Shown here: piece by piece, positions 37,773 to 62,664 of the stretch
Position numbering within the stretch: position 1 is the first letter of the stretch
Layout of the letters: each line of letters opens with the position of its first letter
Assembly (NCBI GenBank): GCA_964443325.1
Contig: CAYUCL010000003.1
Span: forward strand, 33,961-97,960
Reading direction: 5' to 3'
DNA length: 64,000 nucleotides
Origin: an uncultured Dehalococcoidales bacterium
Lineage (GTDB): Bacteria; Chloroflexota; Dehalococcoidia; E44-bin15
Notes under the pieces: model-generated
The model's database searches: none
Seen by the model: the letters and a program-made list of their open reading frames with translations, nothing else
What the model was told of the DNA's origin: nothing
Position numbers and translations under genes: made by a program

Positions 37773-37805
37773 CTATGCCTTCTCCTCTCCATGGTATGCC
37801 AGCTC

Positions 37806-43100: not shown

Positions 43101-43246
43101 GCTCAGGTGAAGCTCTCTTCAAGGCAGGATGGCTCTTGGTTGAGGGAATTGTGCAGCGTCGAGGACTCCACGCACTGTCAGTGATAGCTTATCGTGTTGC
43201 CACCTTACAGCCCCCCGCTTCAAGTCAACGTAAAAAATGTTTTTAA
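40072..43246 (+). pseudogene. dnaE: DNA polymerase III alpha subunit (DnaE family, short form ending after the OB fold) interrupted by a +1 frameshift near 42100-42112
   Basis: ORF 40072..42240 carries the PHP domain (HLHVHSPYSFLDG) and polymerase core up to ...VYQEQVL. DnaE homology then continues in the +1 frame (HELAGMSYADADGLRRAMTHGRSPEEMEKIR..FAAYGFPKGHAASYAIPAYQTLWLKCHYLPEF..) as ORF 42122..43246. The combined length is about 1055 aa. Confidence 0.75.
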
Positions 43247-44665: not shown

Positions 44666-45181
44666 TTACTGCTGAGAATCCTTCTCCATCTCCTCCAGGA
44701 TGATTCTGGTTGTGAGCCTGGCTGTTTCCCCAACGAGCTTTGAGCAATAATCGAACATACCAAACTTCGTGGCTTCTTGTAGCTCATTAGGGTCATACAG
44801 GTTGAAAGTCCTGCCCATAAGCCTTTCTTGAATGTCGTAACACCGGCAAGTGCCATATTTTTCAACAAACTCGTCATGCAACCTTTTTGACAGTATATAG
44901 GATTTCAGCGGCTTCATCATATCGGCAAAATCCTTCCTTTCCCTGCCAAAAAGATAGCCTATCACTATAGCCCCTGCCGTGAGAGACCCACAAGTCCCAT
45001 CTCCGGTTAGCCCCAGCCCGTCAGCTAAACCACTCGCCGCCTTGAAAACATCTTCATTGTCAATATCAAGAGCATCGAAAATTCCCGCAATCGTAGTCTG
45101 TGCGCATCCAGTACATTCCCTTTCATACTTGCGCCCCCGCTCAAAGGCCTTATTTGAAATCTCTTCGATTGACTTTCCCAT
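44666..45181 (-). CDS. C_GCAxxG_C_C family (putative redox-active) protein
   Basis: CTGCAQTTIAGI motif plus downstream Cys residues. Start moved to the Met with an AAGGGGG RBS. Confidence 0.6.
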   Translation of the reverse strand: MGKSIEEISNKAFERGRKYERECTGCAQTTIAGIFDALDIDNEDVFKAASGLADGLGLTGDGTCGSLTAGAIVIGYLFGRERKDFADMMKPLKSYILSKRLHDEFVEKYGTCRCYDIQERLMGRTFNLYDPNELQEATKFGMFDYCSKLVGETARLTTRIILEEMEKDSQQ

Positions 45182-45344
45182 ATAATTCCCCCTTACTGTT
45201 TTTTCAAACAACATACTTCGATGAGAAATACTTATCTATGCCACACATAATTGTACCATCTCACCAGCATTAATGACCAAGCTAAATGCCCAGGATCTAC
45301 CACCGCTTATTCTAATCCCCTTGCACGGCCAAGCGTCCACATGC

Positions 45345-46784
45345 CTATGGCAACTTATACACTGGCTCTGTAGGTAGATCCTTGAAATCAGGATGGTCCG
45401 TAGGAAGTCCCAGAGAATGCCTGGCCGCAGCCTTATATCGCTCCCAATCGGCCTGCATATAAACCGTCATTCGCTGAGCCGCCAAAGACCCCTCAGCATG
45501 AATGGTAAGCGCTCCCATGAAAGACGAGCCCTCACGGTTTACCGCATTCATAAGTTGTATCCTCTCCTCAGCAGGATACTCCGCAGCGCCCTGAAGATAC
45601 TTCTCCAGATAAGGACGGATTTCGGGATTGTCCCAGTCCTTCAGCGAAGGCATGGTTGCTGGAAGCCCACCAGTTATGTCCTGGAGATACTTGACTGCCT
45701 GATGCCAATTTTCGGCAAACCAGAACTTAGCACAATTGCTATAGACCGGATTGGGCGCCGCCAGACCTATCTCCGGGTCTATTGTAGCGTCTAAAGCTGC
45801 TGCCTTGCCCAGAGCCTCATTTATCTCAGCATACATAGCAAGCCAGGCTAGCATGTCCATAATACGGGTAGCACGAGTGAGTCCATTGTGTTCTGCCATT
45901 AACATGGCAGTCCCTGCAAGCGTCTGGAGCATAACCGTCTTGTAGGTGGCGGCAGTAAGTCGATGGTATCGCGCGAATGACATCGCTACCTCCCTTGAAA
46001 ACTGCCACTCCCCGGCGAGGAAAACCTTGTCCCAGGGAACAAAAACATCGTCAAAGACAATCATCGGGTGTGCCCCAGGCTGCCCCTGATCCGACATAGT
46101 CCCAATAAAAACAACCCCTTTGGCGTTGCATGGTACGGCACAGGCCACAGCATAATCTTTGGCCGGCTCATTGTGGTTGCGTGAGGGCAATACTACTAGC
46201 CAATTGGCATAAATGGCGTCGGTGATGTGAACCTTGGCACCCCTGATGACGATACCATCGCTGCTTCGGTCAACGATCCTGACATAGAAATCTGGATTCG
46301 CTTGCCTTGGGTCTTCGGGGTGCAAGCTCCTGTTGCCTTTCACATCGGTCATTGTAGCAACAATGCCAGGGTCATGTTTCTGACAATAATTGCGGAATTC
46401 TTCAACGTGCTCGGCATAATTGGTGCCTATCGCCAGGTCCATCTTCCTGGCGCTGTAGGCAATTCCGTTCAGTCCATCAATTCCGGTGAACTTCGTACCT
46501 CCGGCAGCCGAGCGAAACAGCGTCTGAATGATCAGTCTCCGTCTCTGAAGATCTTCACCAGTCTTAGGCACGTGATAAACAAAAGGATACTCTTCCCCAT
46601 CCTTCACCACATTGAACAGCTCACGGTTCTCAGGCTGCAAAGCTATATAGTATTCTGAAGCTGCGTGCTCCACTGCTCTCTTGTAAGCTGGAAGGGAAGG
46701 TACATCCGATACCCTCTCCCCATCCTGGTAAACTACCCTTCCATCTCTCAGGTCTTCTACAAACTGCTCAGGCGTCCTAAGCAT
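45345..46784 (-). CDS. HpaB / 4-hydroxybutyryl-CoA dehydratase family flavoenzyme, paralog of 31516..33003
   Basis: 479 aa. Conserved blocks DFYVRIVDRS.DGIVIRGAK.H.T, IVFDDVFVPW.KVF..GEWQFSR and TIHAEGSLAAQRM are shared with the other copy. AAGGAGG RBS. Confidence 0.65.
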   Translation of the reverse strand: MLRTPEQFVEDLRDGRVVYQDGERVSDVPSLPAYKRAVEHAASEYYIALQPENRELFNVVKDGEEYPFVYHVPKTGEDLQRRRLIIQTLFRSAAGGTKFTGIDGLNGIAYSARKMDLAIGTNYAEHVEEFRNYCQKHDPGIVATMTDVKGNRSLHPEDPRQANPDFYVRIVDRSSDGIVIRGAKVHITDAIYANWLVVLPSRNHNEPAKDYAVACAVPCNAKGVVFIGTMSDQGQPGAHPMIVFDDVFVPWDKVFLAGEWQFSREVAMSFARYHRLTAATYKTVMLQTLAGTAMLMAEHNGLTRATRIMDMLAWLAMYAEINEALGKAAALDATIDPEIGLAAPNPVYSNCAKFWFAENWHQAVKYLQDITGGLPATMPSLKDWDNPEIRPYLEKYLQGAAEYPAEERIQLMNAVNREGSSFMGALTIHAEGSLAAQRMTVYMQADWERYKAAARHSLGLPTDHPDFKDLPTEPVYKLP

Positions 46785-47046: not shown

Positions 47047-49578
47047 CTAGCCCAGTCCTTGCACTGTCCTCTGGATAATATTGTCCTGTGTCTTGCGGCT
47101 GATGTCCACAAAATGGGCGCTGTACCCAGCCACCCGCACTATCAACTCCTGGTACTTCTCCGGCTCCCGCTGCGCCGCCCGCAACGTGGCATCATCTACC
47201 ATGTTGAACTGCACATGGTCCAGCCCCAGGTCAGCCCATGTCTTCATGTACGCCTTCCATAGCTGATACCCCTTCTCCCCCGCTAGCTGCGTCGGAGAAA
47301 GCCGCTGGTTCAACAGGAACGCCCGGCCATCGCTGATGTGGTTTATCTTGCCGCATGACTTCAGCACCGCTGTTGGCCCCTTCTTGTCAAGTCCAGGGCC
47401 TGGTGAAAGGCCTCCGTCGTAGAGGGCGTCGCCCAGCCTCCTGCCATTGGGCAAGGCATGTACCCTATTGGAGAAATGGATGTTGCCGCTCACATTCTCC
47501 GGCAGCACCGGCCATGGGTTTCCGCAAGGGTCCTTCAACTCGTGGGAGTGTCGGCTTATTTCGTGCAAGCAGCGCACCATTATATCGTCCACGTAGTCTT
47601 CATCATTGCCCCACTTGGGAGCTCTCTTGACGAAGTCAAGCCGTATTTCCTCGTAGCCCTCCCAGTTGGCTTCAAGGGCGGTTATCAACTGGTCCATTGA
47701 GTACTTCTTATCTTCAAATACGAGCTTCTTCACCGCCGCCAGAGCATCTACATTCTCTACCCATGTGAAGAAGGTAACCCAGCTATTGCCTCGCTCACCA
47801 GACCTTGGGTCGACTGTGTCCCAACCGCTGTCCACCGACCTCTCGGAGATGCCCGACAAGAATGGACGACCGAAACTCTTATAGGAATTCGCCCGCCCGG
47901 CGTTAACGATGCGCACCCCAAAGTTCATCAACCACTCCATCTGTTTGACCCACGCCTCAAACAATTGCTCAAAGTCGGTGAACTGACGCGCATCGCCAGT
48001 CTTCGGCCCTATCTGCATCTGCATACAATGGTCATATCCATTATGGAGGGCATACTCGATCATCTTTGCGGCGTTCATAGTCGCCGATGCCATTCGGCAC
48101 GGCTGATAGCCATACTTGGTGGTGGGAGCGGGCGACATGCACGCCTGGTGCACCCATGTCCTCATCTCCTCCAGAGGGTGATTATGCCAGTACATCCCAT
48201 TTTGAATCAGGATGGGGTCATTGCGAATCGAGGGATAGCCCAGACCATGCCTGATACACTCGAATATCTCCCGCATTACCTCATCTTTTACCTGAGGATG
48301 CCAGCGGAAGCCAAAGGTAGGGTTGGACACCCGCACCATCCTCGCCGCCTGCAGGAACGCTGTCGTCAGGTCGGTACATGCATCACTACCATCCTTATTT
48401 ACCCCACCCAGAGTCCACACCCAGGTGCCTACTATGCCCTGCAGCGCTTCGGCTCCACCTCGGCCTAAAAAGTGGCCCATTTCGTAGGCTCGGATGAGGG
48501 ACTCCCCTACCAGGTCGAGCGCTTCGTCCTTGGTGAGTGTCTTATCTATATTCACATCCTTGTTGTAATAGGGCCAGCCATAGTAGTCCGGTCGTGTAGG
48601 CCACGCCGACTCAAATTCCTCCAGTCTGGTCCAGGTTTGTATGAAGTGCTGCATCTGCAAATGCTCCTGGAAGGTTCTGGCCGGCTTCGCCGGCACCCGC
48701 TCGCAGGTTTCGGCGACCTTCAGCAGCTCCTCCTTGCGCCTGGCATCCGGTTCATAGTTCTCCGCTATAATCCGCGCCAGCCTTGCATATCGCTTAGCGT
48801 GATTGATGCAACCCTCCAGTGCGATCTGCATCGCCTCCCAGTTGGGCAGCTTCTCGTAAATGTCAAGCTCAGCACCATCGGGCGTGCCATCTAGCTGATC
48901 CTCACCCTCATCGATCTTCACCTGGATGTCGTTGATCATATCCTCGAATCCCTTGCCACCACCCACCTCCTGGTTCTTACCAAATATGTACTCATAATCT
49001 TTACCGGAATAACCATAGCTGCCACCGAAAGGAAAACCCCACATGAGCGCCCCTGTAATGTACTTCCCCACATCCTCAGACCTGAGAATCTTGAACATCT
49101 CCTTTATATGACCCTGAGTGCCCCAGTAGTTGGCGACATCAGACATAATCTGTAAGGATTCCTCCTTCGGCTCAGGGATGATGATCGGATCATTGTAGAT
49201 CTCACCACCCATCATCTGCGCATTGGCATACAGGGTGTTCGGAAGGTTACCCTCAGTAGCTACAAGCTGTGCATGATCGCTTATGAAAACAGTCCTGTTT
49301 TCCATCATATAGGCCAGAGCCTTCGCCCTCCTCAGCATGAGGGGGTTACCTTCGCTCGCCTTCCAGCCCTCGGTGTATAGCTGTGGGCTTTCCAGGTCAA
49401 TCTTTAGACCCTGTTCATACGCCCCTCCCCTTCGCCCCTTTTTCCACACCGCTTTCCTCAGGTAGTCCAGCCTCGGCGACCTCTTCTTCTCCGCCGCCCA
49501 CCACCACGCCCTTTCCGTCTCGAGCTCATCTACAGACTTATCTGGCGCTGCACTTTGCTTTGCTATTATTTCCGCCAT
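47047..49578 (-). CDS. glycyl radical enzyme, X-succinate synthase (fumarate-adding enzyme, BssA/AssA-like) catalytic subunit candidate
   Basis: 843 aa. Glycyl radical loop RVAGYSAHFVDI at the C-terminus, Cys loop HQACMSPAP, GND(E)D block, and multiple blocks recalled as BssA-like (see findings). Confidence 0.7.
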   Translation of the reverse strand: MAEIIAKQSAAPDKSVDELETERAWWWAAEKKRSPRLDYLRKAVWKKGRRGGAYEQGLKIDLESPQLYTEGWKASEGNPLMLRRAKALAYMMENRTVFISDHAQLVATEGNLPNTLYANAQMMGGEIYNDPIIIPEPKEESLQIMSDVANYWGTQGHIKEMFKILRSEDVGKYITGALMWGFPFGGSYGYSGKDYEYIFGKNQEVGGGKGFEDMINDIQVKIDEGEDQLDGTPDGAELDIYEKLPNWEAMQIALEGCINHAKRYARLARIIAENYEPDARRKEELLKVAETCERVPAKPARTFQEHLQMQHFIQTWTRLEEFESAWPTRPDYYGWPYYNKDVNIDKTLTKDEALDLVGESLIRAYEMGHFLGRGGAEALQGIVGTWVWTLGGVNKDGSDACTDLTTAFLQAARMVRVSNPTFGFRWHPQVKDEVMREIFECIRHGLGYPSIRNDPILIQNGMYWHNHPLEEMRTWVHQACMSPAPTTKYGYQPCRMASATMNAAKMIEYALHNGYDHCMQMQIGPKTGDARQFTDFEQLFEAWVKQMEWLMNFGVRIVNAGRANSYKSFGRPFLSGISERSVDSGWDTVDPRSGERGNSWVTFFTWVENVDALAAVKKLVFEDKKYSMDQLITALEANWEGYEEIRLDFVKRAPKWGNDEDYVDDIMVRCLHEISRHSHELKDPCGNPWPVLPENVSGNIHFSNRVHALPNGRRLGDALYDGGLSPGPGLDKKGPTAVLKSCGKINHISDGRAFLLNQRLSPTQLAGEKGYQLWKAYMKTWADLGLDHVQFNMVDDATLRAAQREPEKYQELIVRVAGYSAHFVDISRKTQDNIIQRTVQGLG

Positions 49579-51457: not shown

Positions 51458-52084
51458 TCAGGTTTCTCGCCCCTTTATTTGAAGCCAACCAATCAGCCTT
51501 CCGTTAAGGCTGGGAATAGTCTGCAACTCACGATAATGCTTCAGTGCCAATATTGCAAGCACACACAGCATGAACAACGATTCCCAGGGTCTTGCCCCCA
51601 TAATTGCAAGGCAAGCCAATGAACCCGCTGCGGTGAGTATGACTGCCCATGCGTCAGTACGTACGAAAAGGAAAGCTAACACCATTAGGACGGTAAACGT
51701 AGCCAGTATCTCGTACTGAGGCAGCGCCAGCATGACACCAAAAGTGATAGCTATCGCTTTACCCCCTCTGAAGCGGAGCAGGGGGGAGAAGGCATGTCCC
51801 AATATCGCACTCACTGCGACCGCCATAACTGCCGGCTCTGACAAACTAAAAAACCAGTGCGCCAGCGCTACGAATGGCACACCTTTCAATATGTCCAAGC
51901 CCAATGCAAGGGAACCAAGCTTACGGCCTCCAGATCGGAACACATTGGCAGAACCGGGATTGCCATCTCCGTAATCTCTTATATCTTTACCCAGGCGCCA
52001 CCGGCCAATCCACACCGAAAACGGGCATGCACCTAGCGAGAAGGCGCCCAGAGCTAGCAGTAGAAAACAGAATAAATCCCCCAT
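51458..52084 (-). CDS. plsY: glycerol-3-phosphate acyltransferase PlsY
   Basis: DGNPGSANVFRSGG and LDILKG signature, 208 aa, five TM helices. Confidence 0.8.
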   Translation of the reverse strand: MGDLFCFLLLALGAFSLGACPFSVWIGRWRLGKDIRDYGDGNPGSANVFRSGGRKLGSLALGLDILKGVPFVALAHWFFSLSEPAVMAVAVSAILGHAFSPLLRFRGGKAIAITFGVMLALPQYEILATFTVLMVLAFLFVRTDAWAVILTAAGSLACLAIMGARPWESLFMLCVLAILALKHYRELQTIPSLNGRLIGWLQIKGRET

Positions 52085-52648
52085 TTGAATGCTCTCGATA
52101 GAAATTGCTCAGATACCTTGCTTTTCTACGCGTAACATAAACCATAACCCCATTGTTAGTCAATAGCAGAAAAGGTACCTTAATCCGTGGATTCTTCTTG
52201 AGGGCTGAGGGAGTCCTCTCCCTCAGCTTTCGTGAAGGAATCCTTCACAGAAGGACCTTCACGCCTCAGAAAAAACCAACTAACAGACGAGTCTTTTGAA
52301 TCCGAACTCACAGACCAAGGAGGTAGGTGCCAGAGATATTTTGCCAACCATAAACCGGGCCATAATGACAGATAACACCTTATATCTTAAGATAACTTTA
52401 TACGGTTAATAGGAGCGTAGGCTGTTCTCTCGGACCACTTTCGGCCAGTTTGTGAGACCCCATGCTGCCGATGCCACCTGGTATGTTGAATGTGCTATAA
52501 TTCCGCGAGGGGCTTAAGGCAGAGTGTTTTGCATTCTGCCACTACGAACGACCAGGCATGCAAAATCTACGCTTGATAGCGTGTCAAAGCTATACAAGCA
52601 GGCAGAGCTTGGTCAGTATTGCTACATATACAACGGGGGGCTGATTGT

Positions 52649-53542
52649 ATGAATCATAAATGGCAGCATCGTTTTGTGAATACAAATGGAATCCGTATGC
52701 ACTACGTTGAGCAGGGAGAGGGTTTCCCCGTGCTCCTCCTCCATGGTTTTCCCGAGCTTTGGTATTCATGGAGATACCAGATACCGGAGTTGGCCAATGC
52801 CGGCTTCCACGCCATTGCACCCGACCTGCGCGGCTATGGTGAGACAGACAAGCCTGAGGGCATCGAGTCCTATGACATCCATCATTTGATTGGAGACCTG
52901 GTAGGTTTACTTGATGCTCTTGAGTTGGAGCGCGCAGTGATTGTAGGGCATGATTGGGGTGGCATTATTACCTGGCAGATGGCTTTGATATGTCCAGAGC
53001 GCGTTGAGCGAGTGATCTCACTGAATACTCCTTTCCAACTTCACGGCCCCGTGCGGCCAACAGAGGCCTTCAGCCAAACCCCTGACGGCCGGTTCAACTA
53101 TATCATCTATTTTCAGCAGCCGGGACAGGCCGAAGCGGATATTGAGCCTAATATAGAGGCCTTTTTGGAAACGACGATGCGCCGTCTCGCCACAGAAGAA
53201 AGCTTCATTACCGAGGAGACCCTCAAGGTCTTTTCTAATGCCTTCCACAAAGGGGGCCTAACTGGCCCGATTAATTACTATCGCAACTTCGACCGCAACT
53301 GGGAGACAACCGCTCATCTCACAGGCCGCAAAGTCACTATGCCCGCACTCATGATTTGCGCCGAAAATGACTCGATACTCACACCACAAATGACGAATGG
53401 TATGGAACGTCATGTTCCCAATCTCACCACTCGCCTGGTTAAGAATTGCGGGCACTGGACCCAGCAAGAGCGACCCGACGAGGTCAACCGCCTGATCATA
53501 GAATTCCTTCACGACCTGAAGAGGAGGCGAGACAATGTTTGA
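52649..53542 (+). CDS. alpha/beta hydrolase, epoxide hydrolase / haloalkane dehalogenase-like
   Basis: HGFPELWYSWRYQ motif and GHDWGG nucleophile elbow. The start at the internal Met is preceded by a G-rich RBS. Confidence 0.75.
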   Translation: MNHKWQHRFVNTNGIRMHYVEQGEGFPVLLLHGFPELWYSWRYQIPELANAGFHAIAPDLRGYGETDKPEGIESYDIHHLIGDLVGLLDALELERAVIVGHDWGGIITWQMALICPERVERVISLNTPFQLHGPVRPTEAFSQTPDGRFNYIIYFQQPGQAEADIEPNIEAFLETTMRRLATEESFITEETLKVFSNAFHKGGLTGPINYYRNFDRNWETTAHLTGRKVTMPALMICAENDSILTPQMTNGMERHVPNLTTRLVKNCGHWTQQERPDEVNRLIIEFLHDLKRRRDNV

Positions 53543-54563
53543 ACTAATATTTGATGAAAAGAAATGCTTGGCTTGCCAGACTTGTGATTGTCTCACCAAG
53601 TGCCAGTATATGGATATAGACATAGATACAGCGAAAACAGAGATGAGGAAGATAATCAACGGTGAAGATTCTTTCGTATTACACCAGTGCGTAACATGCT
53701 ATGCCTGCGAGGAATACTGCAAAATGGGGAACCACCCCTTCTATCTAATCGCTGAGCGCCAGGAAGAACTGGGCATACCGCCTACGCCCAAGCCTGTTAT
53801 CAGGCAATGGGTTCAATTGGCTATCCCGCAGATGGGAGAACTCAAGATTGAACAGGTTAAGGAGCCGGTTCTCAGTATGTGCATGTTCGGTCAGCTTGCT
53901 GGTTCAATCCAGGGGAAACTGTTTGACGGTGTCTCCATTCTACCAAGGGAGAATCAAGAAGGGATGCAATTCTTCTGTCAGTTGATGTACCTGCACTTTG
54001 CCAGGACTTCCGTAATAAAAGAGAGGCTCCCGAGGATAATAGAGAACATCACCAAGCACAATATCACAGAGCTCATATGCTTCCACGACGAGTGCTACGG
54101 TACCTTTACCTCATACGCACCTGCCGTGGGCATCGAAGTCCCGTTCAAACCAATTCATTTCTTTGAGTATCTGTACAACAGGCTAGTGGAACTCAAGGAC
54201 GACATAAAACCGCTGAATTTGAAGGTGGCTTATCAGCGTCCCTGCTCGTCCAGGCTTTCCCCAGAAAAACTCCACTTCGTCGACGATATCTTCAACCTGA
54301 TAGGGGTGGAGAGCGTCAAAAGAGAGTATGTTGGCGAGAATGCCCTATGCTGCGGAGCACCTATCAGAGGACAGAGAAAGGAAGGAAGCCGTCAACTCGC
54401 TATTGATTTGCAGCGGAGAAACATACAGGATATGATTGACGCTGGGGCCGAATTCTGCGTTTTCAACTGCCCCTATTGCTTCCTTACCCTGTCGGAGCGC
54501 GTTACCAAGAGCGGCTTGAAGCCCGTCTTTATGGGCGACCTTTGCCGGCTCGCCGTTGGCTAG
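53535..54563 (+). CDS. Fe-S oxidoreductase with two ferredoxin-type Cys clusters and a C-terminal CCG domain (HdrD/GlpC/LutA-like)
   Basis: CLACQTCDCLTKC, CVTCYACEEYC, LCCGAP and CVFNCPYC motifs. ATGTTTGA overlap with the upstream hydrolase gene. Confidence 0.7.
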   Translation: MFELIFDEKKCLACQTCDCLTKCQYMDIDIDTAKTEMRKIINGEDSFVLHQCVTCYACEEYCKMGNHPFYLIAERQEELGIPPTPKPVIRQWVQLAIPQMGELKIEQVKEPVLSMCMFGQLAGSIQGKLFDGVSILPRENQEGMQFFCQLMYLHFARTSVIKERLPRIIENITKHNITELICFHDECYGTFTSYAPAVGIEVPFKPIHFFEYLYNRLVELKDDIKPLNLKVAYQRPCSSRLSPEKLHFVDDIFNLIGVESVKREYVGENALCCGAPIRGQRKEGSRQLAIDLQRRNIQDMIDAGAEFCVFNCPYCFLTLSERVTKSGLKPVFMGDLCRLAVG

Positions 54564-54588
54564 AAACTAGCATAATGGAGATGATACT

Positions 54589-55968
54589 GTGGATTCAATA
54601 TTTAAATCATTAGCTGAAATAGTTGGAGAAAGTCACGTCTCCAGCCAACCAGAGGAGCTTTATATCTATTCTTATGACCTTGGCACGACTGAGCCTCATC
54701 GTCCGGACTATATAGTGGCGCCGAGGACGACTCATGAAGTGCAAGAAATAGTTAAGCTAGCAAATAGGGGGAAAATCCCGGTGGTTCCTCTTGGAGGCGG
54801 GTTGTCCCTAGCTGGTCTGGCTGTGCCTCAGCGGGGAGGCATCGTGCTGGACCTAAAGAGGATGGACACAATAATAGAGGTAAATGGAAAGGCAAGGTAT
54901 GTAGTTGTCGAGGCTGGCGTTTCACAGGGGCAGCTAATATCCTACCTGGAGAAGTACCACCCCAAACTGAGACACTCAGAGCCACAGGCACCAGGTCCAG
55001 CCACGATTGCGGGCAATGTAGCGATACACGGTCAAGGCGATCTGGCTCAGCCGTATGGCTTCAATTCCGATATGGTGAACGGGCTAGAGGTTGTCTTACC
55101 AACAGGAGAGTTGTGCAAAATCGGCTCCTGTTCAGTATCTCCCATTTGGTTCACCCTACACCCCTTGCCCGATTTAGGTCTCTTCCTCGGATGGTCTGGC
55201 ACCACGGGCATCATTACCAAGCTGTCGCTTAAGCTTTTCCCATCGAAAAGGATCAGGGAAGTGGAGCAGTTTATAGTCGAGGATGCGGAGCTGGTTCCAG
55301 AAATTATATACAAAATCAGTCACACAGAGATGGCTGAAGATATATTCGCCGGAACTCAAACGACCATTCCTGCTCGTATGGGTCTCCACCATGTAACTAT
55401 GTATATCACCGCTGATTCGGAAAAGGAACTCGAATTCAAGACAGGGTTAATCTGGGATGACGCACTCGGGGAATATATTCGGAATGGAGATGGGGGGTTC
55501 GTCGATTTACCACCCCCTATAAAAGCTCGCTTTACCGAGAGACCCAGTATGCTGCTGTCTACAGTCGCTGATGCCAAAGAGGGTGGAGGCTTTGAATATG
55601 TCGGGGGCATTATGCCAATGGAAACCTACCCTGAGTGCTGCAAGCGAGGGGCTGAGATCTGTTCCAGACACGATATTCCTCAACTGTTGATCGCGCGGGT
55701 TATTGGACGGTCTCACTCTATGATGTTTGCCTGGGCATATGTATTCAATCGCGCTGACCTTGAGAGCATCAGGCAAGCGAGGGAAGCCGTACATGAAACG
55801 GACGACCTTGTCCTGGAGTTGGGTGGGGCTATCTGGAAACCCGGCGTTTATGGACAGAGGCTAATGATGCAACGAATTGACCCTACTACTCTCAAACTCA
55901 TGGAGATGGTAAAGGGGCTTCTCGACCCTAACGGCATTATGAACCCTGGAAATTGGGAGGCAGTATAA
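54589..55968 (+). CDS. FAD-linked oxidase (GlcD / D-lactate dehydrogenase family)
   Basis: FAD_binding_4 region PRTTHEVQEIVKLANRGKIPVVPLGGGLS and a C-terminal FAD-oxidase_C region. GTG start. Confidence 0.8.
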   Translation: MDSIFKSLAEIVGESHVSSQPEELYIYSYDLGTTEPHRPDYIVAPRTTHEVQEIVKLANRGKIPVVPLGGGLSLAGLAVPQRGGIVLDLKRMDTIIEVNGKARYVVVEAGVSQGQLISYLEKYHPKLRHSEPQAPGPATIAGNVAIHGQGDLAQPYGFNSDMVNGLEVVLPTGELCKIGSCSVSPIWFTLHPLPDLGLFLGWSGTTGIITKLSLKLFPSKRIREVEQFIVEDAELVPEIIYKISHTEMAEDIFAGTQTTIPARMGLHHVTMYITADSEKELEFKTGLIWDDALGEYIRNGDGGFVDLPPPIKARFTERPSMLLSTVADAKEGGGFEYVGGIMPMETYPECCKRGAEICSRHDIPQLLIARVIGRSHSMMFAWAYVFNRADLESIRQAREAVHETDDLVLELGGAIWKPGVYGQRLMMQRIDPTTLKLMEMVKGLLDPNGIMNPGNWEAV

Positions 55969-56147
55969 TTGTTCTTGCAGACCGGTAAGATCTCTGCCTG
56001 CCGCACAGAGACAATAGCAGGTAGCCAACCCCTTGAATTCGTAGAATAATTTGACATAGTATTGTTCTCTGATAGAATGGTGCTGCTTGCCAGTTAGGAT
56101 ATTGCAGTAGTCTATCAATGTAGTAACACAAGCGAGGGGGTGAATTC

Positions 56148-57194
56148 ATGTATGAATTAAAATTTGATGAGAGGAAATGCATAGCCTGTAAGACTTGTGA
56201 TTGCCTCACCAAGTGCCAGTATATGGATATAGACAGGGATACAGCAAAAACAGAGATGCGCAAAATAATCAATGGTGAGGATTCCTTTGTATTACATGAT
56301 TGCGTAACATGCTATGCCTGCGAGGAGTACTGTAAAATGGGCAACCACCCCTTCTATTTGATCGCTGAACGCCAGGAAGAACTAAATATACCGCCTATGC
56401 CCAGGCCTCTTATCAAACAAGCTGTCCAATTGGGCATCCCCTGGAGGGGAGATCTCAAGATTGAGGAGGTCAAGGAGCCTGTGCTAAGTATGGGTATGTT
56501 CGCTCCGCTTGCCAATTTAATACAGGGGAAGCTTTTTGAAGGTCTCTCTCTCCTATCAGTGGATCCTCGAACGGCGGTTCATCTTTTTTGTCAGCTCATG
56601 TACCTGCACTTCGCCAGGACATCGGTAATAAAGGAGAAATTGCCAGGCATCATAGAAACTATCGCCAAACACAATGTCAAAGAGGTCATATTTTTCCATG
56701 ACGAGTGCTACGGTACCTTTACCTCATATGCCCCTGCGGTTGGCATTGAAGTCCCGTTCAAATCTATTCATTTTCTCGAGTATCTCTACAACAGGCTAGT
56801 GGAACTCAAGGATGATATCAAACCGCTGAATCTTAAAGTGGCTTACCAGCGCCCCTGCTCATCCCGTCTTTCCTCGGATAAGCTCCACTTTGTCGATGAT
56901 ATCTTCAACCTGATAGGGGTAGACGGCGACAGAGAGTATGTTGGCGAGAATGCCCTGTGCTGTGGAGGTACGATCATAGGGCAAAGATATGAAGGAAGAT
57001 ATGAACTCGCTGCTGATGTACAAAGGAGAAATATTGAAGATATGGTGAACGCTGGCGCTGAGCTTTGTGTCTTTAATTGCCCTGCTTGCTACGATACCCT
57101 AAGACGTTTGGTCACCAGAAATGGCATATGGCCCATATTTATGAGCGATCTTTGCCGACTCGCCATAGGCGAGCAACCTGCAGGATGGAGGTGA
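56148..57194 (+). CDS. Fe-S oxidoreductase with CCG domain, paralog of 53535..54563
   Basis: Same Cys motifs, about 80% identical. Confidence 0.7.
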   Translation: MYELKFDERKCIACKTCDCLTKCQYMDIDRDTAKTEMRKIINGEDSFVLHDCVTCYACEEYCKMGNHPFYLIAERQEELNIPPMPRPLIKQAVQLGIPWRGDLKIEEVKEPVLSMGMFAPLANLIQGKLFEGLSLLSVDPRTAVHLFCQLMYLHFARTSVIKEKLPGIIETIAKHNVKEVIFFHDECYGTFTSYAPAVGIEVPFKSIHFLEYLYNRLVELKDDIKPLNLKVAYQRPCSSRLSSDKLHFVDDIFNLIGVDGDREYVGENALCCGGTIIGQRYEGRYELAADVQRRNIEDMVNAGAELCVFNCPACYDTLRRLVTRNGIWPIFMSDLCRLAIGEQPAGWR

Positions 57195-57198
57195 TATT

Positions 57199-58569
57199 AT
57201 GGATTCCATATACAAAGCCCTGGTTGAAATAGTGGGGGAGGACCATGCTTCCACCGAGCAGGAGGAGCTTTACATCCATTCTCGCAGTCTAGGGACGGTA
57301 GAGCCCCACCAGCCCGACTATGTAGTGGCGCCGAGGACAACAGAGGAAGTTCAACAAATAGTTAAGCTGGCAAATAGAGAGAAAATTCCCGTAGTTCCAC
57401 TGGGGGGTGGATTATCTCTAACCGGTCTAGTCATGCCTCTGCGAGGAGGCATTGTGCTAGACATGAAAAGGATGGATACAATAATAGAGGTAAACGAAAA
57501 GGCAAGGTATGTAATTGTCGAGGCTGGCGTTTCACAGGGTAAACTAATATCCTGCCTGGAGAGGTATCATCCTAATCTGATGCACTCAGAGCCTATGGCA
57601 CCAGCCCAAGCCACAATTGCGGGCAATGTGATGATACATGGTCAAGGTGACCTGGCGCAGCCGTATGGTTTTAACTCTGACATGGTTAACGGACTTGAGG
57701 TTGTACTACCAACAGGAGAGGTGTGTAAAATAGGCTCCTGTTCGGTATCTCCCTATTGGTTCACAGCACACCCTTTACCTGATTTAGGGCTCTTCCTCGG
57801 ATGGTTTGGCACCACAGGCATCATTACCAAGCTGTCGCTTAGGCTTTATCCCTGCAAAAAGATAAACGGTGTAGATCGATTCTTGGTAGAGGATGCTGAG
57901 CTAATTCCAGAGATCCTACTCAAGATCACTCACACAGAGATGGTGGGAGATCTGGTTTCTTCCATCCAAGGACTCCCACTTGCGGTTAGGGGAATCCACA
58001 TCATAACAATCAACATAAACGGAGATTCCGAGAAGGAGATCGAGTTTAAGAGGCAATTGATCCGCGAAGATATCCTAGGGGAATATATTCGGAATGGGGA
58101 TTGCGGATTTATGGGTACGACGCCAGATTTGAGAACAGGGCAACAGAGACCTACGATTACAACGGTCGCTGACATTAAGAGGGGTGGTGGATTTGAATAT
58201 GTTGGAGCAATACTACCGGTGGATACATATCCCGAGTGTTGCAGAGAAGGTGAGGCGATCTCTTCAAGACACGACATTATCTACACTTTAGGAGGACGAG
58301 TTATCGGAAGGTCTCACGCCATGATGTTTTTCTGGTCATATGCATTCAATCGAGCAGACCCAGAAAGCGTCAGACAGGCAAGGGAAGCACTACATGAATC
58401 AGATGAGCTTGCCCTTAAACTAGGAGGGGTCCCCTGGAAGCCAAGTGTTTATGGACAGAAGTTAATTATGGAGAAGATGGAACCAAATACCCTCGAATTG
58501 ATGAGGAAAATAAAGGAGCTTCTCGACCCTAACGGAATTATGAACCCTGGAAATTGGGAGGTAATGTAA
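57199..58569 (+). CDS. FAD-linked oxidase (GlcD family), paralog of 54589..55968
   Basis: About 75% identical, same domain layout. Confidence 0.8.
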   Translation: MDSIYKALVEIVGEDHASTEQEELYIHSRSLGTVEPHQPDYVVAPRTTEEVQQIVKLANREKIPVVPLGGGLSLTGLVMPLRGGIVLDMKRMDTIIEVNEKARYVIVEAGVSQGKLISCLERYHPNLMHSEPMAPAQATIAGNVMIHGQGDLAQPYGFNSDMVNGLEVVLPTGEVCKIGSCSVSPYWFTAHPLPDLGLFLGWFGTTGIITKLSLRLYPCKKINGVDRFLVEDAELIPEILLKITHTEMVGDLVSSIQGLPLAVRGIHIITININGDSEKEIEFKRQLIREDILGEYIRNGDCGFMGTTPDLRTGQQRPTITTVADIKRGGGFEYVGAILPVDTYPECCREGEAISSRHDIIYTLGGRVIGRSHAMMFFWSYAFNRADPESVRQAREALHESDELALKLGGVPWKPSVYGQKLIMEKMEPNTLELMRKIKELLDPNGIMNPGNWEVM

Positions 58570-59759
58570 TGGCTCTTGCAGATTATAAATACAAAGATGT
58601 CATACACAGGTGCTTCAGGTGTGGCTACTGTAAGTTTCCAAGTAACTGGATGGAGGTGAATAACTGCCCAGCTTATGCCAGATTCCGTCTGGAAAGCTAC
58701 TCCACAGGGGGGCGGTTGTGGCTGATAAGAGCCTGGCTAAATGATGAAATAGAGTGGACGGACCATCTTGCCCAGATTGTATATTCATGCGCCGCATGTA
58801 AAAACTGTGTTGAGCAATGCCCATATCGCTTCCATGATGATATCGTCGACATGATCATAGCAGCAAGGAGTGAGATGGTTGAGAGAGGTTCAATACCATC
58901 TGTTGTCAAGGAGTTTTTAGAGAATATTCAGAGGCAGGGAAATCCGTATGGGAATGCTAGATCAAAGAGGGGCGAATGGGTTGAGGGAATGGGAATAAAG
59001 CAATATGAGGGACAGGAATATCTGTATTATGTTGGCTGTGTAGGGTCGTATGATACCAGAGCCAAAGAGACAGCGAGAACGCTTGGAGAGGTGCTGCTAA
59101 AAGCCGGCGTATCTTTTGGGGTGATGGGCAATGATGAAAATTGCGATGGTAACGAGGTGAGCAAGCTCGGCGAGGAGAGTTTATTCCAGTCATTAGCTGA
59201 GGACAACATCCAGCAATTCAAAGATTTAGGGGTAGAGAAGATTGTTGCCCTCTCTCCGCATTCCTACAACGCCATTAAAAACGACTATCCTATGTTTAAT
59301 GGTAGCTTTGAGGTATTTCACTACACACAACTTCTTCGAGACCTTATCAAAGGGGGAAGGCTAGATATTTCCAGTGGATTCGATGCCAGGGTTACCTACC
59401 ATGACCCCTGTTTCCTCGGCCGGTGGAACAAGGAGTATGAAGCTCCAAGACAAGTGCTAAACGCTATTCCTGGAGTCGAACTGGTAGAGATGGAGAGGAG
59501 TAGAGAGGGCGCCCTGTGCTGTGGTGGCGGCGGCGGCAACTTCTATACCGATTTTCTTGGCGGGAGCGAGGATAGCCCGGCAAGAATCAGAATCCGCGAA
59601 GCCTGCGCTACGGGAGCCAGCATAGTTGCGACAGCCTGTCCCAACTGTATGACCATGCTGGAGGATGCTGTCAAAGCGGAAGGGCTTGAAGAGAGTATTA
59701 AAGTAAAGGATATCTCTGAAATTGTAGCTGAGGCTTGCCTGGCAAAAAGGGCTGATTAG
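58569..59759 (+). CDS. GlcF-like Fe-S protein (two 4Fe-4S ferredoxin motifs plus two CCG domains)
   Basis: CFRCGYCKF...NCP, CAACKNCVEQCP, CCGGGGGNF and CPNCM motifs. ATG at 58569 with a GGAGGT RBS (TAATG overlap with the upstream gene). Confidence 0.7.
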   Translation: MALADYKYKDVIHRCFRCGYCKFPSNWMEVNNCPAYARFRLESYSTGGRLWLIRAWLNDEIEWTDHLAQIVYSCAACKNCVEQCPYRFHDDIVDMIIAARSEMVERGSIPSVVKEFLENIQRQGNPYGNARSKRGEWVEGMGIKQYEGQEYLYYVGCVGSYDTRAKETARTLGEVLLKAGVSFGVMGNDENCDGNEVSKLGEESLFQSLAEDNIQQFKDLGVEKIVALSPHSYNAIKNDYPMFNGSFEVFHYTQLLRDLIKGGRLDISSGFDARVTYHDPCFLGRWNKEYEAPRQVLNAIPGVELVEMERSREGALCCGGGGGNFYTDFLGGSEDSPARIRIREACATGASIVATACPNCMTMLEDAVKAEGLEESIKVKDISEIVAEACLAKRAD

Positions 59760-59837
59760 CTAATTACGGAATAGATTTCCTTTAGTAACCATATTCCCCG
59801 TATCAAATCATCCTTCTTTCTTAGCAGGAGATTAATC

Positions 59838-60620
59838 ATGGATATAGTGGTAGCTATAAAACAGGTGCCAGATACTTCAGAAGCGGTGGATGTAGTGGAA
59901 ATCGATGCATCCGGAAGGGATATAAATAAAGAGGCGCTGGTTTCCAAGATAAACGATTGGGACGAGTACGCTTTAGAGGAAGCAGTACAGTTGAAGCAGA
60001 AGCTAGGAGGAACTGTTACCGCGGTAACGGTGGGAGCAAGTGAATGGGATGATATCCTGAGAAGAGCATTAGCTATGGGTGCTGACAGGGCGATTAGAAT
60101 CGATGAAGATGCAGCTTCCATGGACTCCAACACTGTAGCCAAGATTCTGACAGCCGTTATCATCCATTTGCCCTATGACCTAGTAATCTTCGGTGCACAA
60201 TCAGAAGATTTCGGTAGCGGTCAACTTGGCTGCATGGTTGCTGAGATGCTTGATATTCCGCATGCCACCCTCGTGGTCAGCCTCCAGATGGATGAGGGAG
60301 AGGTTCGAGTAAGCCGAGAGCTAGAGGGTGGCGCGCTTGAGTTGTATACCCTGAAGCTTCCTGCGCTTCTGACTATCCAGACTGGTATCAATCGGCCAAG
60401 GTATGTCTCCTTTGCCAGCATTAAAAAGGCAAGGGAGAAGGAATTGAAGGTGATCTCGCTCAACGAGCTGGGCTTGTCCCGCGATGCATTAACTCCACTG
60501 GTAATATTGGAGAAATTAGAGTTAACGCCCACAGGTAAAAAGGCAGAGCTAATATCCGGTTCGGCTGAAGAGACTGCGGGCAAACTGGCGATGATCCTGA
60601 ATGATTCGGGGGTTATCTGA
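59838..60620 (+). CDS. etfB: electron transfer flavoprotein beta subunit
   Basis: MDIVVAIKQVPD N-terminus and EtfB fold length of 260 aa. Confidence 0.85.
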   Translation: MDIVVAIKQVPDTSEAVDVVEIDASGRDINKEALVSKINDWDEYALEEAVQLKQKLGGTVTAVTVGASEWDDILRRALAMGADRAIRIDEDAASMDSNTVAKILTAVIIHLPYDLVIFGAQSEDFGSGQLGCMVAEMLDIPHATLVVSLQMDEGEVRVSRELEGGALELYTLKLPALLTIQTGINRPRYVSFASIKKAREKELKVISLNELGLSRDALTPLVILEKLELTPTGKKAELISGSAEETAGKLAMILNDSGVI

Positions 60621-61595
60621 GTGGCTGAGATACTGGTAGTTGTCGAACATAGAAATGAAAATTTGGCCGATGTTTCTCTTGAGATGCTTTCCAAAGGGAG
60701 GCATTTGGCTGACCACGTTAGTGCTGAATTGCTGGCCGTCATCATCGGCAAGGATGTTAACAGGTATGCGCCACGGCTTGCCCAGTGGGCAGACAAGGTC
60801 CTCGCAGTGAAGAATGATGAACTGGAGGATTCGCAAGCTGAGCCCTACCAGAAGACATTGGCTCCCATCATAAAAGAGAGAAAACCAAAGCTTGTCTTGA
60901 TAGGTCATAGCTCCTTTGGAATGGATTTGGCTCCCGCACTGACGGTCGATGTGGGAGCACCCCTGGCTACAGATTGCACAAATATAGCTGTAGAAAACGG
61001 AACGATTACGGTAACAAGGGCGATATACAATGGCAAGGTGAATGCGGTCTACTCATTTGCTCCATCTGAAACGGTGATAGTTACTGGTCGTCCGGGTGAA
61101 TTCCCCGTTGAGGAGGGTCAGAAAGGGGGCAGTGTGGAGGAAATTGATTACCTCCTGGACGAAGAGTTTGATTACAAGAGTTTCGAGGGATACATTGAGC
61201 CTGAGGTAAGTGATATAGATATTACCAAATCAGAGGTCTTGATCGCCGTCGGCAGGGGAATAAAAGATAAGGGAAATATCGAATTGGCCGAGGAGTTAGC
61301 CAACGCATTGGGAGGAGTGCTCGCCTGTTCCAGGCCATTGGTAGATTATGGATGGTTACCGTCTGGTCATCAGGTAGGCCTGTCCGGCAAGACGGTAAAG
61401 CCAAAGCTCTATATTGCACTCGGCATAAGCGGTGCCTTCCAACACATGGTTGGTATGAGGGGCTCGAAGATGATTGTGGCCATCAACAGGGATGCAAAGG
61501 CTCCCATTTTTGCCGATGCTAACTACGGGATAATAGATGACATCCTCAAGGTTGTTCCCATCCTCACACAAAGAATAAACGACCTCAAATCCTGA
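60621..61595 (+). CDS. etfA: electron transfer flavoprotein alpha subunit
   Basis: C-terminal FAD-binding signature [17 protein letters not shown]. Directly abuts etfB. Confidence 0.85.
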
Positions 61596-61767
61596 ACAAA
61601 ACGCAACTCGACAGCGTGCCCCTCCCATTTGAGCTACCGCCTTAGCTACTCAAAAAACGATGGATTTCACACAATTTTAGCTGAATATGACTGACACAAG
61701 AGCGGACACCGCCGTTAAAGCCAGACCTGGAGCCCTATTTAAATGCTAGTCTGAAACTGGCCCTGCT

Positions 61768-62664
61768 TCACCACTTGGACAGTACATCATTCCAGAAAGC
61801 GTATATCCCCTTCTTTCCCTTCCCTCCTCTATATCCAGCCCGTATCATCGCCCTTACCAGGGGATGAAGGCGACCTTTGTCCGGACCGAGCTCCCTTATC
61901 CTATCTTCCTCCGACCAGTCCGACAGTCCCCAGACCCCAATTATATCGGCAAGCTCAAGAGGCCCGATGGGCAGATTGTAGCCCATCTTGACCGCCTTAT
62001 CTATGTCCTCTGGGGTTGCAACTCTCTCCCACACCATCTGAACCGCCTCTCCAGTCATACGACCGTATACACGGTTGGCCAGAAAGCCGTAACTTACATC
62101 TTTGCACACCACCGGCTCTTTCCCCAACTTCCTAGATAAATCACAAGCGAACTGCACCACCTCATCGGAGGTATGAGCCCCCCTCACCACCTCCACCAGC
62201 CTCATTATGGCCACGGGATAGAAAAAGTGCATTCCTACCACCTTATCGGGGCGGCTTGTGACTTCGCCCATCTCCGTTATGTTAAGACCAGAGGTATTAG
62301 AGGCCAGAATTGCATGCTGCGGAGCACTCGCATCTAGCTTCTTGAAAACATCTTTTTTTACACCCAGGTTCTCCACAACCACCTCAATGACGAAATCAAC
62401 GTCCTTTACCGCTTCCTCTATACTTGTGCTACATCTTATTCGGTCCAATGTAGCCTTCTTTTCCTCCACCGTCAGAGTACCTTTAGAGACGAAATAACGC
62501 TCCAACCTTTCTTCAATCGCCCGCAGTCCATTACTCACCAGTTCATCACTCATATCCACCATATGCGTCTCATAACTCCCCAGACGGGCAAGGATTTCAG
62601 CTATTTGAGAGCCCATGGTACCTGCACCTATCACCGCAACTTTCTTAATATCTTCGACCTTCAT
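61768..62664 (-). CDS. 3-hydroxyacyl-CoA dehydrogenase (NAD-binding, Hbd-like)
   Basis: VAVIGAGTMGSQIA Rossmann motif and an HCDH C-terminal domain. Start at the internal Met with an AAGGAG RBS. Confidence 0.8.
   Translation of the reverse strand: MKVEDIKKVAVIGAGTMGSQIAEILARLGSYETHMVDMSDELVSNGLRAIEERLERYFVSKGTLTVEEKKATLDRIRCSTSIEEAVKDVDFVIEVVVENLGVKKDVFKKLDASAPQHAILASNTSGLNITEMGEVTSRPDKVVGMHFFYPVAIMRLVEVVRGAHTSDEVVQFACDLSRKLGKEPVVCKDVSYGFLANRVYGRMTGEAVQMVWERVATPEDIDKAVKMGYNLPIGPLELADIIGVWGLSDWSEEDRIRELGPDKGRLHPLVRAMIRAGYRGGKGKKGIYAFWNDVLSKW

Follow-up and report, generated by a model that had tools for sequence, protein, structure and literature searches.

What is the use of an operon in which two pairs of genes, each specifying an iron-sulfur (Fe-S) protein and a flavoenzyme, are followed by a single gene for a third Fe-S protein and by the two genes of an electron-transfer flavoprotein (ETF)? 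The operon belongs to an uncultured Dehalococcoidales bacterium. It occupies 52.6 to 61.6 kb of a 64,000-nucleotide stretch of contig CAYUCL010000003.1, which as a whole we call the window and whose positions serve as coordinates throughout. It comprises eight tightly packed open reading frames (ORFs) on the + strand, coding for proteins named here Hyd, A1, B1, A2, B2, C, EtfB and EtfA, in this order; the domains of all eight were called with a Pfam scan. The disposal of the relatively high-potential electrons of ETF in anaerobes that oxidise fatty acids, aromatic compounds or alkanes is only partly understood, and the known outlets are quinone-reducing membrane proteins, ETF-QO, EtfD/EMO and FixCX. 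What the locus displays is an Fe-S module of the EtfD type minus its membrane domain, whose constant companions are an orphan flavoenzyme and another HdrD-like protein. The explanation that fares best overall, which in our estimate has about an even chance of being right, is a soluble multi-subunit oxidoreductase, carrying flavin adenine dinucleotide (FAD) and Fe-S clusters, wired to a canonical, non-bifurcating ETF.

A trio conserved across Bacteria and Archaea

The conserved unit is the trio A-B-C, not the association of an oxidase with Etf. This follows from a comparison of 83 loci (79 from a scan of one genome per GTDB species, and four from metagenomes), based on phmmer searches with all ORFs and on all-against-all clustering of the ORFs across loci. 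As far as each contig reaches, A, B and C are adjacent, co-oriented and in this order in every one of the 83, whereas EtfB-EtfA stands directly after C in 12 of the 61 informative loci, mostly those of Dehalococcoidia. In the other 49, where the contig continues for 900 nt or more past C, Etf is absent throughout 9 kb, and 22 further loci are uninformative on this point. The 83 come from at least seven phylum-level lineages. Bacterial hosts are Dehalococcoidia, Desulfobacterales (including the cultured Desulfatitalea alkaliphila, L028), Syntrophorhabdus, Syntrophus and a Leptospirales metagenome-assembled genome (MAG), and the archaeal ones are Archaeoglobi, Bathyarchaeia, Heimdallarchaeota (Asgard), Nezhaarchaeota and Ca. 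Alkanophaga. An apparent fusion of B with C in one locus (L048) proved to be an artefact of N-masked sequence.

Etf apart, the clustering gave no family of ORFs present in more than 11 loci and no neighbour of the trio that recurs in more than nine, and no recurrent membrane subunit was found in the neighbourhoods of the 83. Acyl-CoA synthetases, the commonest of the variable neighbours, occur in nine. A flavoprotein resembling CoA-disulfide reductase and NADH oxidase (CoADR/Nox-like), with a single active-site Cys, occurs in four (L009 13413-14747, L014 14932-16587, L044 5306-6670 and L081 12562-13902), which represent four lineages: Dehalococcoidales, a deltaproteobacterium, Desulfosalsimonas and Nezhaarchaeota. 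Both were considered as pathway markers and set aside as too sporadic. Two further features of these neighbourhoods deserve mention in their own right. A set of genes that adjoins A-B-C or its Etf in unrelated genomes (L001 8005-8711, L003 15051-16175, L087 200-7903 and L088 712-5234) comprises DUF134, AF_2379 (PF27306), Nitro_FeMo-Co (PF02579), CbiA/ParA-type ATPases with ferredoxin domains and DUF5320; the set may combine a regulator with genes for Fe-S or cofactor maturation. In seven Desulfobacteraceae or deltaproteobacterial loci (L063, L066, L067, L072, L077, L079 and L082) a second, more distant paralogue of B (450-470 bits with phmmer) is encoded divergently, just upstream of the trio.

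The Fe-S proteins and the flavoenzyme

The only sequence match of C in the PDB is EtfD of Mycobacterium smegmatis (9ojn), over residues 407-735 (E=8e-62), so that the likeness drawn in the initial annotation, between a GlcF-like protein and the Fe-S oxidoreductases that oxidise Etf, is upheld. EtfD is a membrane protein that links ETF to menaquinone. Two cubane clusters, D3 and D4, lead to heme b, and the pair of CCG domains accommodates D1, a linear [3Fe-4S] cluster, together with D2, a noncubane [4Fe-4S] cluster that has a His in the place taken in HdrB by a bridging Cys and is, for that reason, fully coordinated and non-catalytic (PMC13083937). When the ligands described there are mapped on C (PMC13083937), the eight cubane cysteines (C15, C18, C21, C33, C74, C77, C80 and C84) and all the ligands of D2 (H231, C281, C317, C318, C357 and C360) are invariant in 68 of 68 sequences. 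The D1 site is lost. CPHC has become (S/D)PH(A/S), and CCG/CTG has become xDG; where EtfD has Cys581 and Cys584, every one of the 68 sequences has S/D and A/S, and at the positions of Cys503 and Cys538 a Cys is found in only 49 and 43 of them, respectively. The first CCG domain of C is thus degenerate. Lost too is the five-helix heme b membrane domain with its menaquinone site: C has 396 residues, its alignment begins at residue 407 of EtfD, and its maximum Kyte-Doolittle hydropathy over 19 residues is 1.19. Indeed, there is no transmembrane or hydrophobic segment in any of the eight proteins. Nor is C a typical GlcF, the corresponding model giving 43 bits for a cut-off of 333. We read C as a soluble, membrane-less module of the EtfD kind, predicted to carry two [4Fe-4S] cubanes and one His-ligated CCG site of the noncubane type, a ligand pattern that makes a disulfide reductase unlikely.

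A resembles C in general plan, yet the two are weakly related (26% identity over the second CCG domain). A search of PDB sequences with A returned HdrB, and the fold of its AlphaFold2 model (mean predicted local distance difference test, pLDDT, 86) matches HdrB, EtfD and LutA. Invariant in 81 sequences are eight cysteines for two cubane [4Fe-4S] clusters (C11, C14, C19, C23, C52, C55, C58 and C62) and an intact second CCG motif (C237, C272-C273, C312 and C315). The first CCG-like domain is degenerate and strongly conserved all the same: C148, H154 and H184-D-E-C187-Y, encoded at about 53976-54098 in A1 and 56589-56711 in A2, are again kept in the 81 sequences, and form a motif unlike any of the described CCG cluster-ligand patterns with which we compared it. 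This site might bind a metal or a substrate. A2 carries the same invariant Cys and His as A1. A and C each keep only the second of their CCG motifs, where HdrD and HdrBC are recognised by two complete ones.

The matches of the flavoenzyme B to solved structures are mostly confined, at the sequence level, to the FAD-binding domain, and its AlphaFold2 model (pLDDT 74) is equally near to mouse LDHD and to the p-cresol methylhydroxylase/vanillyl-alcohol oxidases, at about 20% identity. GlcD models reach 115-121 bits for a cut-off of 568. The profile of the B family aligns end to end with mouse LDHD (residues 3-448); there, R/A, A and K-P stand in place of the metal ligands (H398, H405, E442) and of the catalytic H443, in a cap domain where the alignment is of low confidence. 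These residues correspond to His377, His384, Glu422 and His423 of LctD from Acetobacterium woodii, where they make up a His-His-Glu metal site and the catalytic His (PMC9232219). Without recourse to that alignment, the motifs EHGxG and H-x6-H are plainly missing from the sequence of B: instead of 'GHxGDGNxH' and 'EHGxG', it reads 'GRSHSMMFAW' and an invariant 'WKP..YGQ'. The motifs that the family does keep invariant are GGGFEYVG and WKP..Y.Q. No motif for covalent flavinylation was seen in B, whose loop PLGGGLSLAG is devoid of His. Judging from these features, B forms an orphan clade of the VAO/PCMH superfamily, with a substrate that cannot be read from known motifs.

A carrier predicted to hold a single FAD

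Three features of EtfB, its signature motif, a Phe where bifurcating proteins have a Gly and the loss of two Thr, argue together with its closest relative for a non-bifurcating Etf. This relative, its best PDB match, is the ETF of Methylophilus methylotrophus W3A1 (158 bits), which contains adenosine monophosphate (AMP) and does not bifurcate (PMC12630350); the human protein scores 109 bits, most bifurcating ETFs 98-106 bits and the other two lower. The signature of bifurcating EtfB proteins is DGDTAQ, with G in 95% and T in 100% of them. Thr94 and Thr97 (Rpa numbering) serve the second FAD, and mutating both converts a bifurcating ETF to AMP binding (PMC8958531). A bulky residue at the position of Gly123 of Afe-EtfB blocks the isoalloxazine of that second FAD, and a Phe at this very place marks an ETF that experiment has established as canonical, and which works with a D-lactate dehydrogenase (PMC12630350). 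Aligned with the bifurcating EtfB of C. difficile (5ol2_B), EtfB of the window has DFGSGQ for DGDTAQ and SMDSntV for GADTwaT, that is, a Phe at the otherwise invariant Gly123 and neither of the two Thr. The Phe and the Val found at these positions are kept in all 12 EtfB proteins linked to the trio.

The large subunit tells the same story. EtfA, with 324 residues, aligns from its residue 4-5, opposite residue 74 of LctC and residue 72 of CarE, and is devoid of the N-terminal ferredoxin domain of these two proteins. In A. woodii this [4Fe-4S] domain of LctC is required for confurcation, which its truncation abolishes (PMC9232219). A regular heterodimer is nevertheless encoded, with the ETF domain in EtfB, and the ETF and FAD-binding ETF_alpha domains in EtfA. 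We predict a non-bifurcating carrier of the AMP type, with one FAD. It would not be a typical member of group 1, since EtfB has DFGSGQ where the zipper consensus of this group is D-D-D-x-N-Q (PMC8958531). Its likeness to the atypical W3A1 ETF (DQAYAS) exceeds that to the human/Paracoccus type, and no group number is given here. The subfamily is a general carrier, judging from a relative that does without the trio: at 8138-10760 of locus L087, an EtfBA pair 62% identical to that of the window lies near an acyl-CoA dehydrogenase and a CoA-transferase downstream. Where A-B-C would be expected, this locus has a fusion of a C_GCAxxG_C_C protein with glutaredoxin, and a 46-codon ORF.

The bifurcating motifs for a second FAD, for which the initial annotation had suggested looking, are therefore absent from EtfB. 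It had also named two observations that would speak against its own proposal, an Etf of the non-bifurcating group 1 and oxidases that cluster with glycolate oxidase operons. The former is largely what we find. The latter is not: the operon has no GlcE-type gene, for the second FAD_binding_4 subunit of glycolate oxidase.

Two old modules and a hydrolase homologue

The operon contains two tandem copies of A-B, just as had been claimed. Protein and DNA identity are both 77% between A1 and A2, and 70% and 74%, respectively, between B1 and B2, against about 48% DNA identity for shuffled sequence; a repeat finder detects the two copies in register, 2601-2613 nt apart. The copies are old and held under purifying selection, with an identity of 55-64% at third codon positions, against 82-89% at positions 1 and 2. 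In neighbour-joining trees, A1 and B1 make a clade of their own with the orthologues from L005 and L006, the two loci, in MAGs, closest to that of the window, and the downstream copies are placed with genes that other Dehalococcoidia have in single copy. B2 stands apart from the B1 clade, with the second copy of L005 and with L019; the second copies of L005 and L006 do not pair as nearest relatives. This separate clade and the third-position divergence identify the two modules as old paralogues and rule out a recent tandem duplication.

Neither copy resembles a pseudo-enzyme. Two family-conserved positions are altered in each copy of B, and none or one in the copies of A. With nearly all such residues retained, both copies are probably active, and we reject the idea that one of them is decayed or neofunctionalised. 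A single family-conserved position is altered in both copies of B, that of the Lys that precedes the invariant GGGFEY motif: it is Glu in the B1 clade (residue 331, at about 55579-55581) and Arg in the B2 clade (residue 328, at about 58180-58182). It is a weak hint of changed specificity, and the position a possible specificity determinant. Since the duplication took in A and B together but neither C nor EtfBA, the layout suggests that A-B is the specific module, and C-Etf the shared one. The initial proposal that two modules feed one Etf fits this layout in form.

The complete arrangement Hyd-A1-B1-A2-B2 is shared only with L005 and L006. The nearest relatives, which are Dehalococcoidales MAGs, have 92% and 87% identity to B1, and an identical EtfB is present in the NCBI assembly GCA_034430535.1 and in a metagenome of the JGI. 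These two loci and the window are also the only ones with a Hyd homologue ahead of A1. The best PDB match of Hyd is the C-domain of human soluble epoxide hydrolase, EPHX2 (E=1e-81). HGFPE.WYSWRYQ, GHDWGG and YYRN align with their counterparts in EPHX2, and the HGxP oxyanion motif, the Asp nucleophile and the cap Tyr are present, so that by its residues Hyd qualifies as a predicted member of the soluble epoxide hydrolase (sEH) family. Such a close homologue of a mammalian-type enzyme is encoded here in an organism presumed to be strictly anaerobic. As called mechanically, the ORF opens with a TTG (52619), and the ATG at 52649 is preceded by a G-rich stretch like a ribosome-binding site. Through ATGTTTGA, an 8-nt overlap of its stop with the start of A1, Hyd appears to be translationally coupled to A1-B1.

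Which way do the electrons flow?

In the oxidoreductase that we favour, B would offer the FAD that faces the substrate. A would be its dedicated HdrD-like partner, always encoded directly upstream of it, with two cubanes and one cluster of the CCG type, and C, with two cubanes and one His-ligated noncubane-type cluster, would be the adaptor to EtfAB. Electrons would pass one at a time, in either direction, between the FAD of B, the three clusters of A, the three clusters of C and the FAD of Etf, with no bifurcation between NADH and ferredoxin at Etf. Two old paralogous A-B modules would share one C and one EtfBA: a hydrolase-coupled module, Hyd-A1-B1, and A2-B2-C-EtfBA, in an arrangement found in other genomes. 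For the window, the oxidative direction seems preferable, each B oxidising an organic substrate and reducing Etf, which would then serve another Etf-dependent enzyme; the substrate of B1 could plausibly be the product of the hydrolase. We favour this direction because the superfamily consists almost entirely of dehydrogenases, because A1-B1 is coupled to a homologue of sEH-type hydrolases, and because VAO-type dehydrogenases are known to donate to canonical ETF, the Ldh-ETF-Bcd system of Fusobacterium nucleatum being a precedent (PMC12630350). What the sequences show is the order of the genes, their content of domains and cofactor ligands, the type of Etf as judged by its signatures, the conservation of the trio and the homology of C with EtfD. 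The formation of a complex, the order of the subunits in the electron path, the direction of the flow and the substrate are all matters that we only infer.

Several observations weigh against this explanation. No experimental datum exists for the families of A, B or C. The relatives of A and B bear generic names in databases ('FAD-binding oxidoreductase', 'glycolate oxidase', '(Fe-S)-binding protein'), no A, B or C protein comes near the cut-off of any NCBIfam equivalog model, and full-text searches of the literature found no characterisation of the trio. With 49 of the 61 informative loci devoid of an Etf within 9 kb, Etf is maybe not the universal partner of C. The hydrolase link is confined to three closely related genomes, and the identity of 50-60% between archaeal and bacterial A-B-C is more like that of a core redox complex than that of a peripheral catabolic dehydrogenase. 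Finally, in EtfD electrons flow from ETF to the Fe-S chain, opposite to the direction that we favour (PMC13083937).

The alternative that survives best, a serious rival although we hold it to be unlikely, is the reverse flow, with A-B-C as a soluble, quinone-independent outlet for the electrons of beta-oxidation. These would pass from acyl-CoA dehydrogenases to Etf, C, A and B, and then to a soluble acceptor of fairly high potential, so that the trio would fill the role of EtfD, of ETF-QO or of the syntrophs' 'Fe-S oxidoreductase' where electrons bypass the quinone pool. Besides the homology of C with EtfD, with its flow from ETF through Fe-S clusters to an acceptor (PMC13083937), papers on MAGs routinely pair EtfAB with an 'Fe-S oxidoreductase' for such a role (PMC6478937, PMC7082340). 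The hosts are mainly degraders of fatty acids, aromatics or alkanes (Syntrophorhabdus, Syntrophus, Desulfobacterales, Archaeoglobi, Ca. Alkanophaga, Bathyarchaeia), and the trio is strongly conserved. The genes nearby point the same way: acyl-CoA synthetases in nine loci, an acyl-CoA dehydrogenase adjoining an Etf of the same subfamily in L087, and a 3-hydroxyacyl-CoA dehydrogenase encoded just downstream in the window. Yet no acceptor can be named, and VAO/PCMH enzymes are overwhelmingly dehydrogenases or oxidases. The duplication of A-B and the coupling to a hydrolase are more natural for substrate-specific catabolic modules. Many of the hosts, Desulfobacterales for example, are moreover known in general to possess menaquinone and membrane complexes.

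It is improbable, though conceivable, that the flavoenzyme oxidises lactate or a similar compound while the HdrD-like subunits reduce a disulfide, CoM-S-S-CoB in archaea, DsrC or another disulfide in bacteria, Etf being an accessory in a few lineages. A and C do have the HdrD architecture, and the invariant H184-D-E-C187/C148/H154 site of A, beside an intact CCG cluster, could be catalytic. Most carriers of the trio, however, are bacteria, which as a group are not known to make CoM or CoB. Pairs of this kind have been assigned the role of a lactate:heterodisulfide oxidoreductase in lineages where the trio occurs, Archaeoglobi, Bathyarchaeia and Nezhaarchaeota (PMC6421429, PMC6474303). HdrB uses a pair of noncubane clusters for its reaction, whereas neither A nor C has two complete CCG motifs, and C keeps the His that makes D2 of EtfD fully coordinated and 'non-catalytic' (PMC13083937). 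The incomplete CCG pairs, this EtfD-type His, the lack of lactate dehydrogenase residues in B and the bacterial hosts all weaken the proposal.

We also doubt strongly that the trio is itself an energy-coupling enzyme with three sites, in which the FAD of B would bifurcate or confurcate electrons between two Fe-S arms, one through C to the high-potential Etf, the other through A to a low-potential partner such as ferredoxin. The idea has its appeal: the flavin subunit always comes with two different HdrD-like subunits, one more than a dehydrogenase of the GlcD/GlcF type needs, and the hosts are strict anaerobes of the sort that is commonly held to live close to the thermodynamic limit. There is no precedent, however, for a VAO-type FAD that bifurcates, and the cluster encodes neither a ferredoxin nor a module for binding NAD(P).

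The proposal of the initial annotation, an Etf-dependent dehydrogenase of D-lactate or other 2-hydroxyacids of the LctBCD type that would confurcate the electrons of its substrate and of reduced ferredoxin onto NAD+, had in its favour a GlcD-superfamily FAD enzyme in one operon with etfBA and the presence of LctD (7qh2_C) among the structural and sequence matches of B, but it is scarcely credible and already contradicted by the sequence itself, as EtfB has no bifurcating signature and finds its nearest match in the W3A1 ETF, of the AMP type, the ferredoxin domain that confurcation needs is missing from EtfA (PMC9232219), B has no equivalents of His377, His384, Glu422 and His423, two Fe-S proteins foreign to Lct systems are invariably present, and Etf is missing from most loci.

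The operon and its surroundings

The features of the operon are collected in Table 1. All seven ORFs from A1 to EtfA were found where the initial annotation had placed them, on the + strand, and their architecture is borne out; the operon extends one gene further upstream, to begin with Hyd. Both junctions quoted there, ATGTTTGA and TAATG, are real and can be read directly in the sequence. In TAATG the stop of B2 overlaps the start of C, which therefore begins at the ATG at 58569, and the junction between EtfB and EtfA is TGAGTG.

Table 1. Features of the operon, in window positions
Feature	Position	Strand	Basis
Hyd, homologue of sEH-type epoxide hydrolases (alpha/beta hydrolase)	52649-53542	+	Pfam Abhydrolase_1, E=8e-36
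A1, HdrD-like Fe-S protein	53535-54563	+	One scored Pfam CCG, E=6e-10; N-terminal 8-Cys di-cluster region
B1, FAD-dependent enzyme, VAO/PCMH superfamily	54589-55968	+	FAD_binding_4, E=6e-34; weak FAD-oxidase_C
Promoter-like site, TTGACA-16-TAGAAT with upstream TG, in the 179-nt B1/A2 spacer	56051-56078	+	Consensus match only
A2, second HdrD-like Fe-S protein	56148-57194	+	One scored Pfam CCG; N-terminal 8-Cys di-cluster region
B2, second copy of the FAD enzyme	57199-58569	+	FAD_binding_4 and weak FAD-oxidase_C
C, soluble EtfD/HdrD-like Fe-S protein	58569-59759	+	Fer4_8 and two CCG stretches
EtfB, small ETF subunit, predicted AMP-type (non-bifurcating)	59838-60620	+	Pfam ETF, E=1.8e-42
EtfA, large ETF subunit with FAD-binding domain	60621-61595	+	Pfam ETF and ETF_alpha, E=2e-34

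The promoter-like site between the two modules matches 11 of 12 consensus positions and is the best of a 10-kb scan, in a region where the total number of such sites is not above that expected from shuffled sequence. A riboswitch or another RNA element that would have named the substrate was also considered and rejected: an Rfam scan of 51900-62000 at E<=1 returned just one chance match, resembling a snoRNA, and the 560-nt leader was empty.

Around the operon, apart from the 3-hydroxyacyl-CoA dehydrogenase just downstream, we noted a group of genes upstream on the - strand. They code for two proteins similar to HpaB/4-hydroxybutyryl-CoA dehydratase (31516-33003 and 45345-46784), an 843-residue glycyl-radical enzyme (47047-49578; PFL-like and Gly_radical domains) with no glycyl-radical activase seen adjoining it, a redox protein of the C_GCAxxG_C_C type (44666-45214) and, in tandem, two CoA-transferases of family III (36570-39008). 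The DnaE protein (DNA polymerase III alpha) is apparently split between two overlapping ORFs on the + strand, 40072-42240, with the PHP domain, the DNA_pol3_alpha NTPase domain and the finger domain, and 42122-43246, with HHH_6. A frameshift, an assembly error or a pseudogene might explain it.

Consequences and comparison with known systems

All the parts of this system come from known superfamilies. Their combination, which we read as an orphan VAO-type flavoenzyme with two HdrD-like proteins, one of them a membrane-less homologue of EtfD, plus a canonical Etf that is optional, has no characterisation in the literature searched, in NCBIfam or in the PDB. A broader thesis may be put forward tentatively, with the odds against it: A-B-C would be an unrecognised and widespread soluble redox complex of strict anaerobes, joining the ETF pool to a soluble substrate or acceptor with no step at a membrane or a quinone. 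Were this true, the trio would do in the cytoplasm what ETF-QO, EtfD or FixCX do otherwise, draining or supplying electrons at the level of beta-oxidation, its Fe-S arm A might provide energy coupling, and the 'HdrD/GlcD' pairs of archaeal MAGs, annotated as lactate:heterodisulfide enzymes, would need reinterpretation. Identifying the substrate would put that annotation of archaeal metagenomics to the test, give a function to a family of thousands of members, and possibly reveal a quinone-independent route for ETF. A word of caution applies to annotation at large: a GlcD-like gene adjoining etfBA is not sufficient for inferring electron confurcation.

Among the systems already described, the mycobacterial EtfD (Rv0338c and its M. 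smegmatis counterpart, 9ojn), to which the EMO/DUF224 'Fe-S oxidoreductase' partners of EtfAB in syntrophs are related, is like C in its two cubane sites and in its D2 ligands, including the His, and C adjoins etfBA in the window and in 11 other loci. EtfD differs in having a transmembrane heme b domain and a long C-terminal tail, both absent from C, and the ligands of a linear [3Fe-4S] D1 cluster, missing throughout the C family. It reduces menaquinone through its membrane domain, whereas C is always encoded with the flavoenzyme B and the HdrD-like A.

The systems built on a dehydrogenase show another mixture of likeness and difference. Ldh-EtfAB of A. woodii (LctBCD, 7qh2) also unites a FAD_binding_4-type dehydrogenase and etfB-etfA in one operon, and the fold of LctD resembles that of B (template modelling score about 0.75, 20% identity). 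Its bifurcating Etf, the ferredoxin domain of its EtfA, its metal site and its catalytic His have no equivalent in the operon, which has two Fe-S/CCG subunits in addition. The Ldh/canonical ETF/Bcd system of F. nucleatum combines a VAO-superfamily dehydrogenase with a canonical ETF, showing the same Phe at the Gly123 position as EtfB of the window. There, a genuine D-lactate dehydrogenase has been shown by kinetics to reduce ETF, and the six-gene cluster encodes no Fe-S subunit (PMC12630350); here, A and C are interposed, and the operon has no acyl-CoA dehydrogenase. GlcDEF, like the pairs of D-lactate dehydrogenase and Fe-S protein (GlcD/GlcF-like, Dld-II-type) in anaerobes, associates, as does the operon, a FAD subunit of the same superfamily with a subunit that has two [4Fe-4S] clusters and CCG domains. 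The operon differs from it in lacking GlcE, in having two different HdrD-like subunits rather than one, and in that the catalytic residues are not conserved. As for Etf, that of M. methylotrophus W3A1 (1o94/3clr) is the closest solved relative of EtfB, with a full-length alignment and a shared G-x-Q-S-x-D motif context; its partner is trimethylamine dehydrogenase, and its zipper reads DQAYAS where the window has DFGSGQ.

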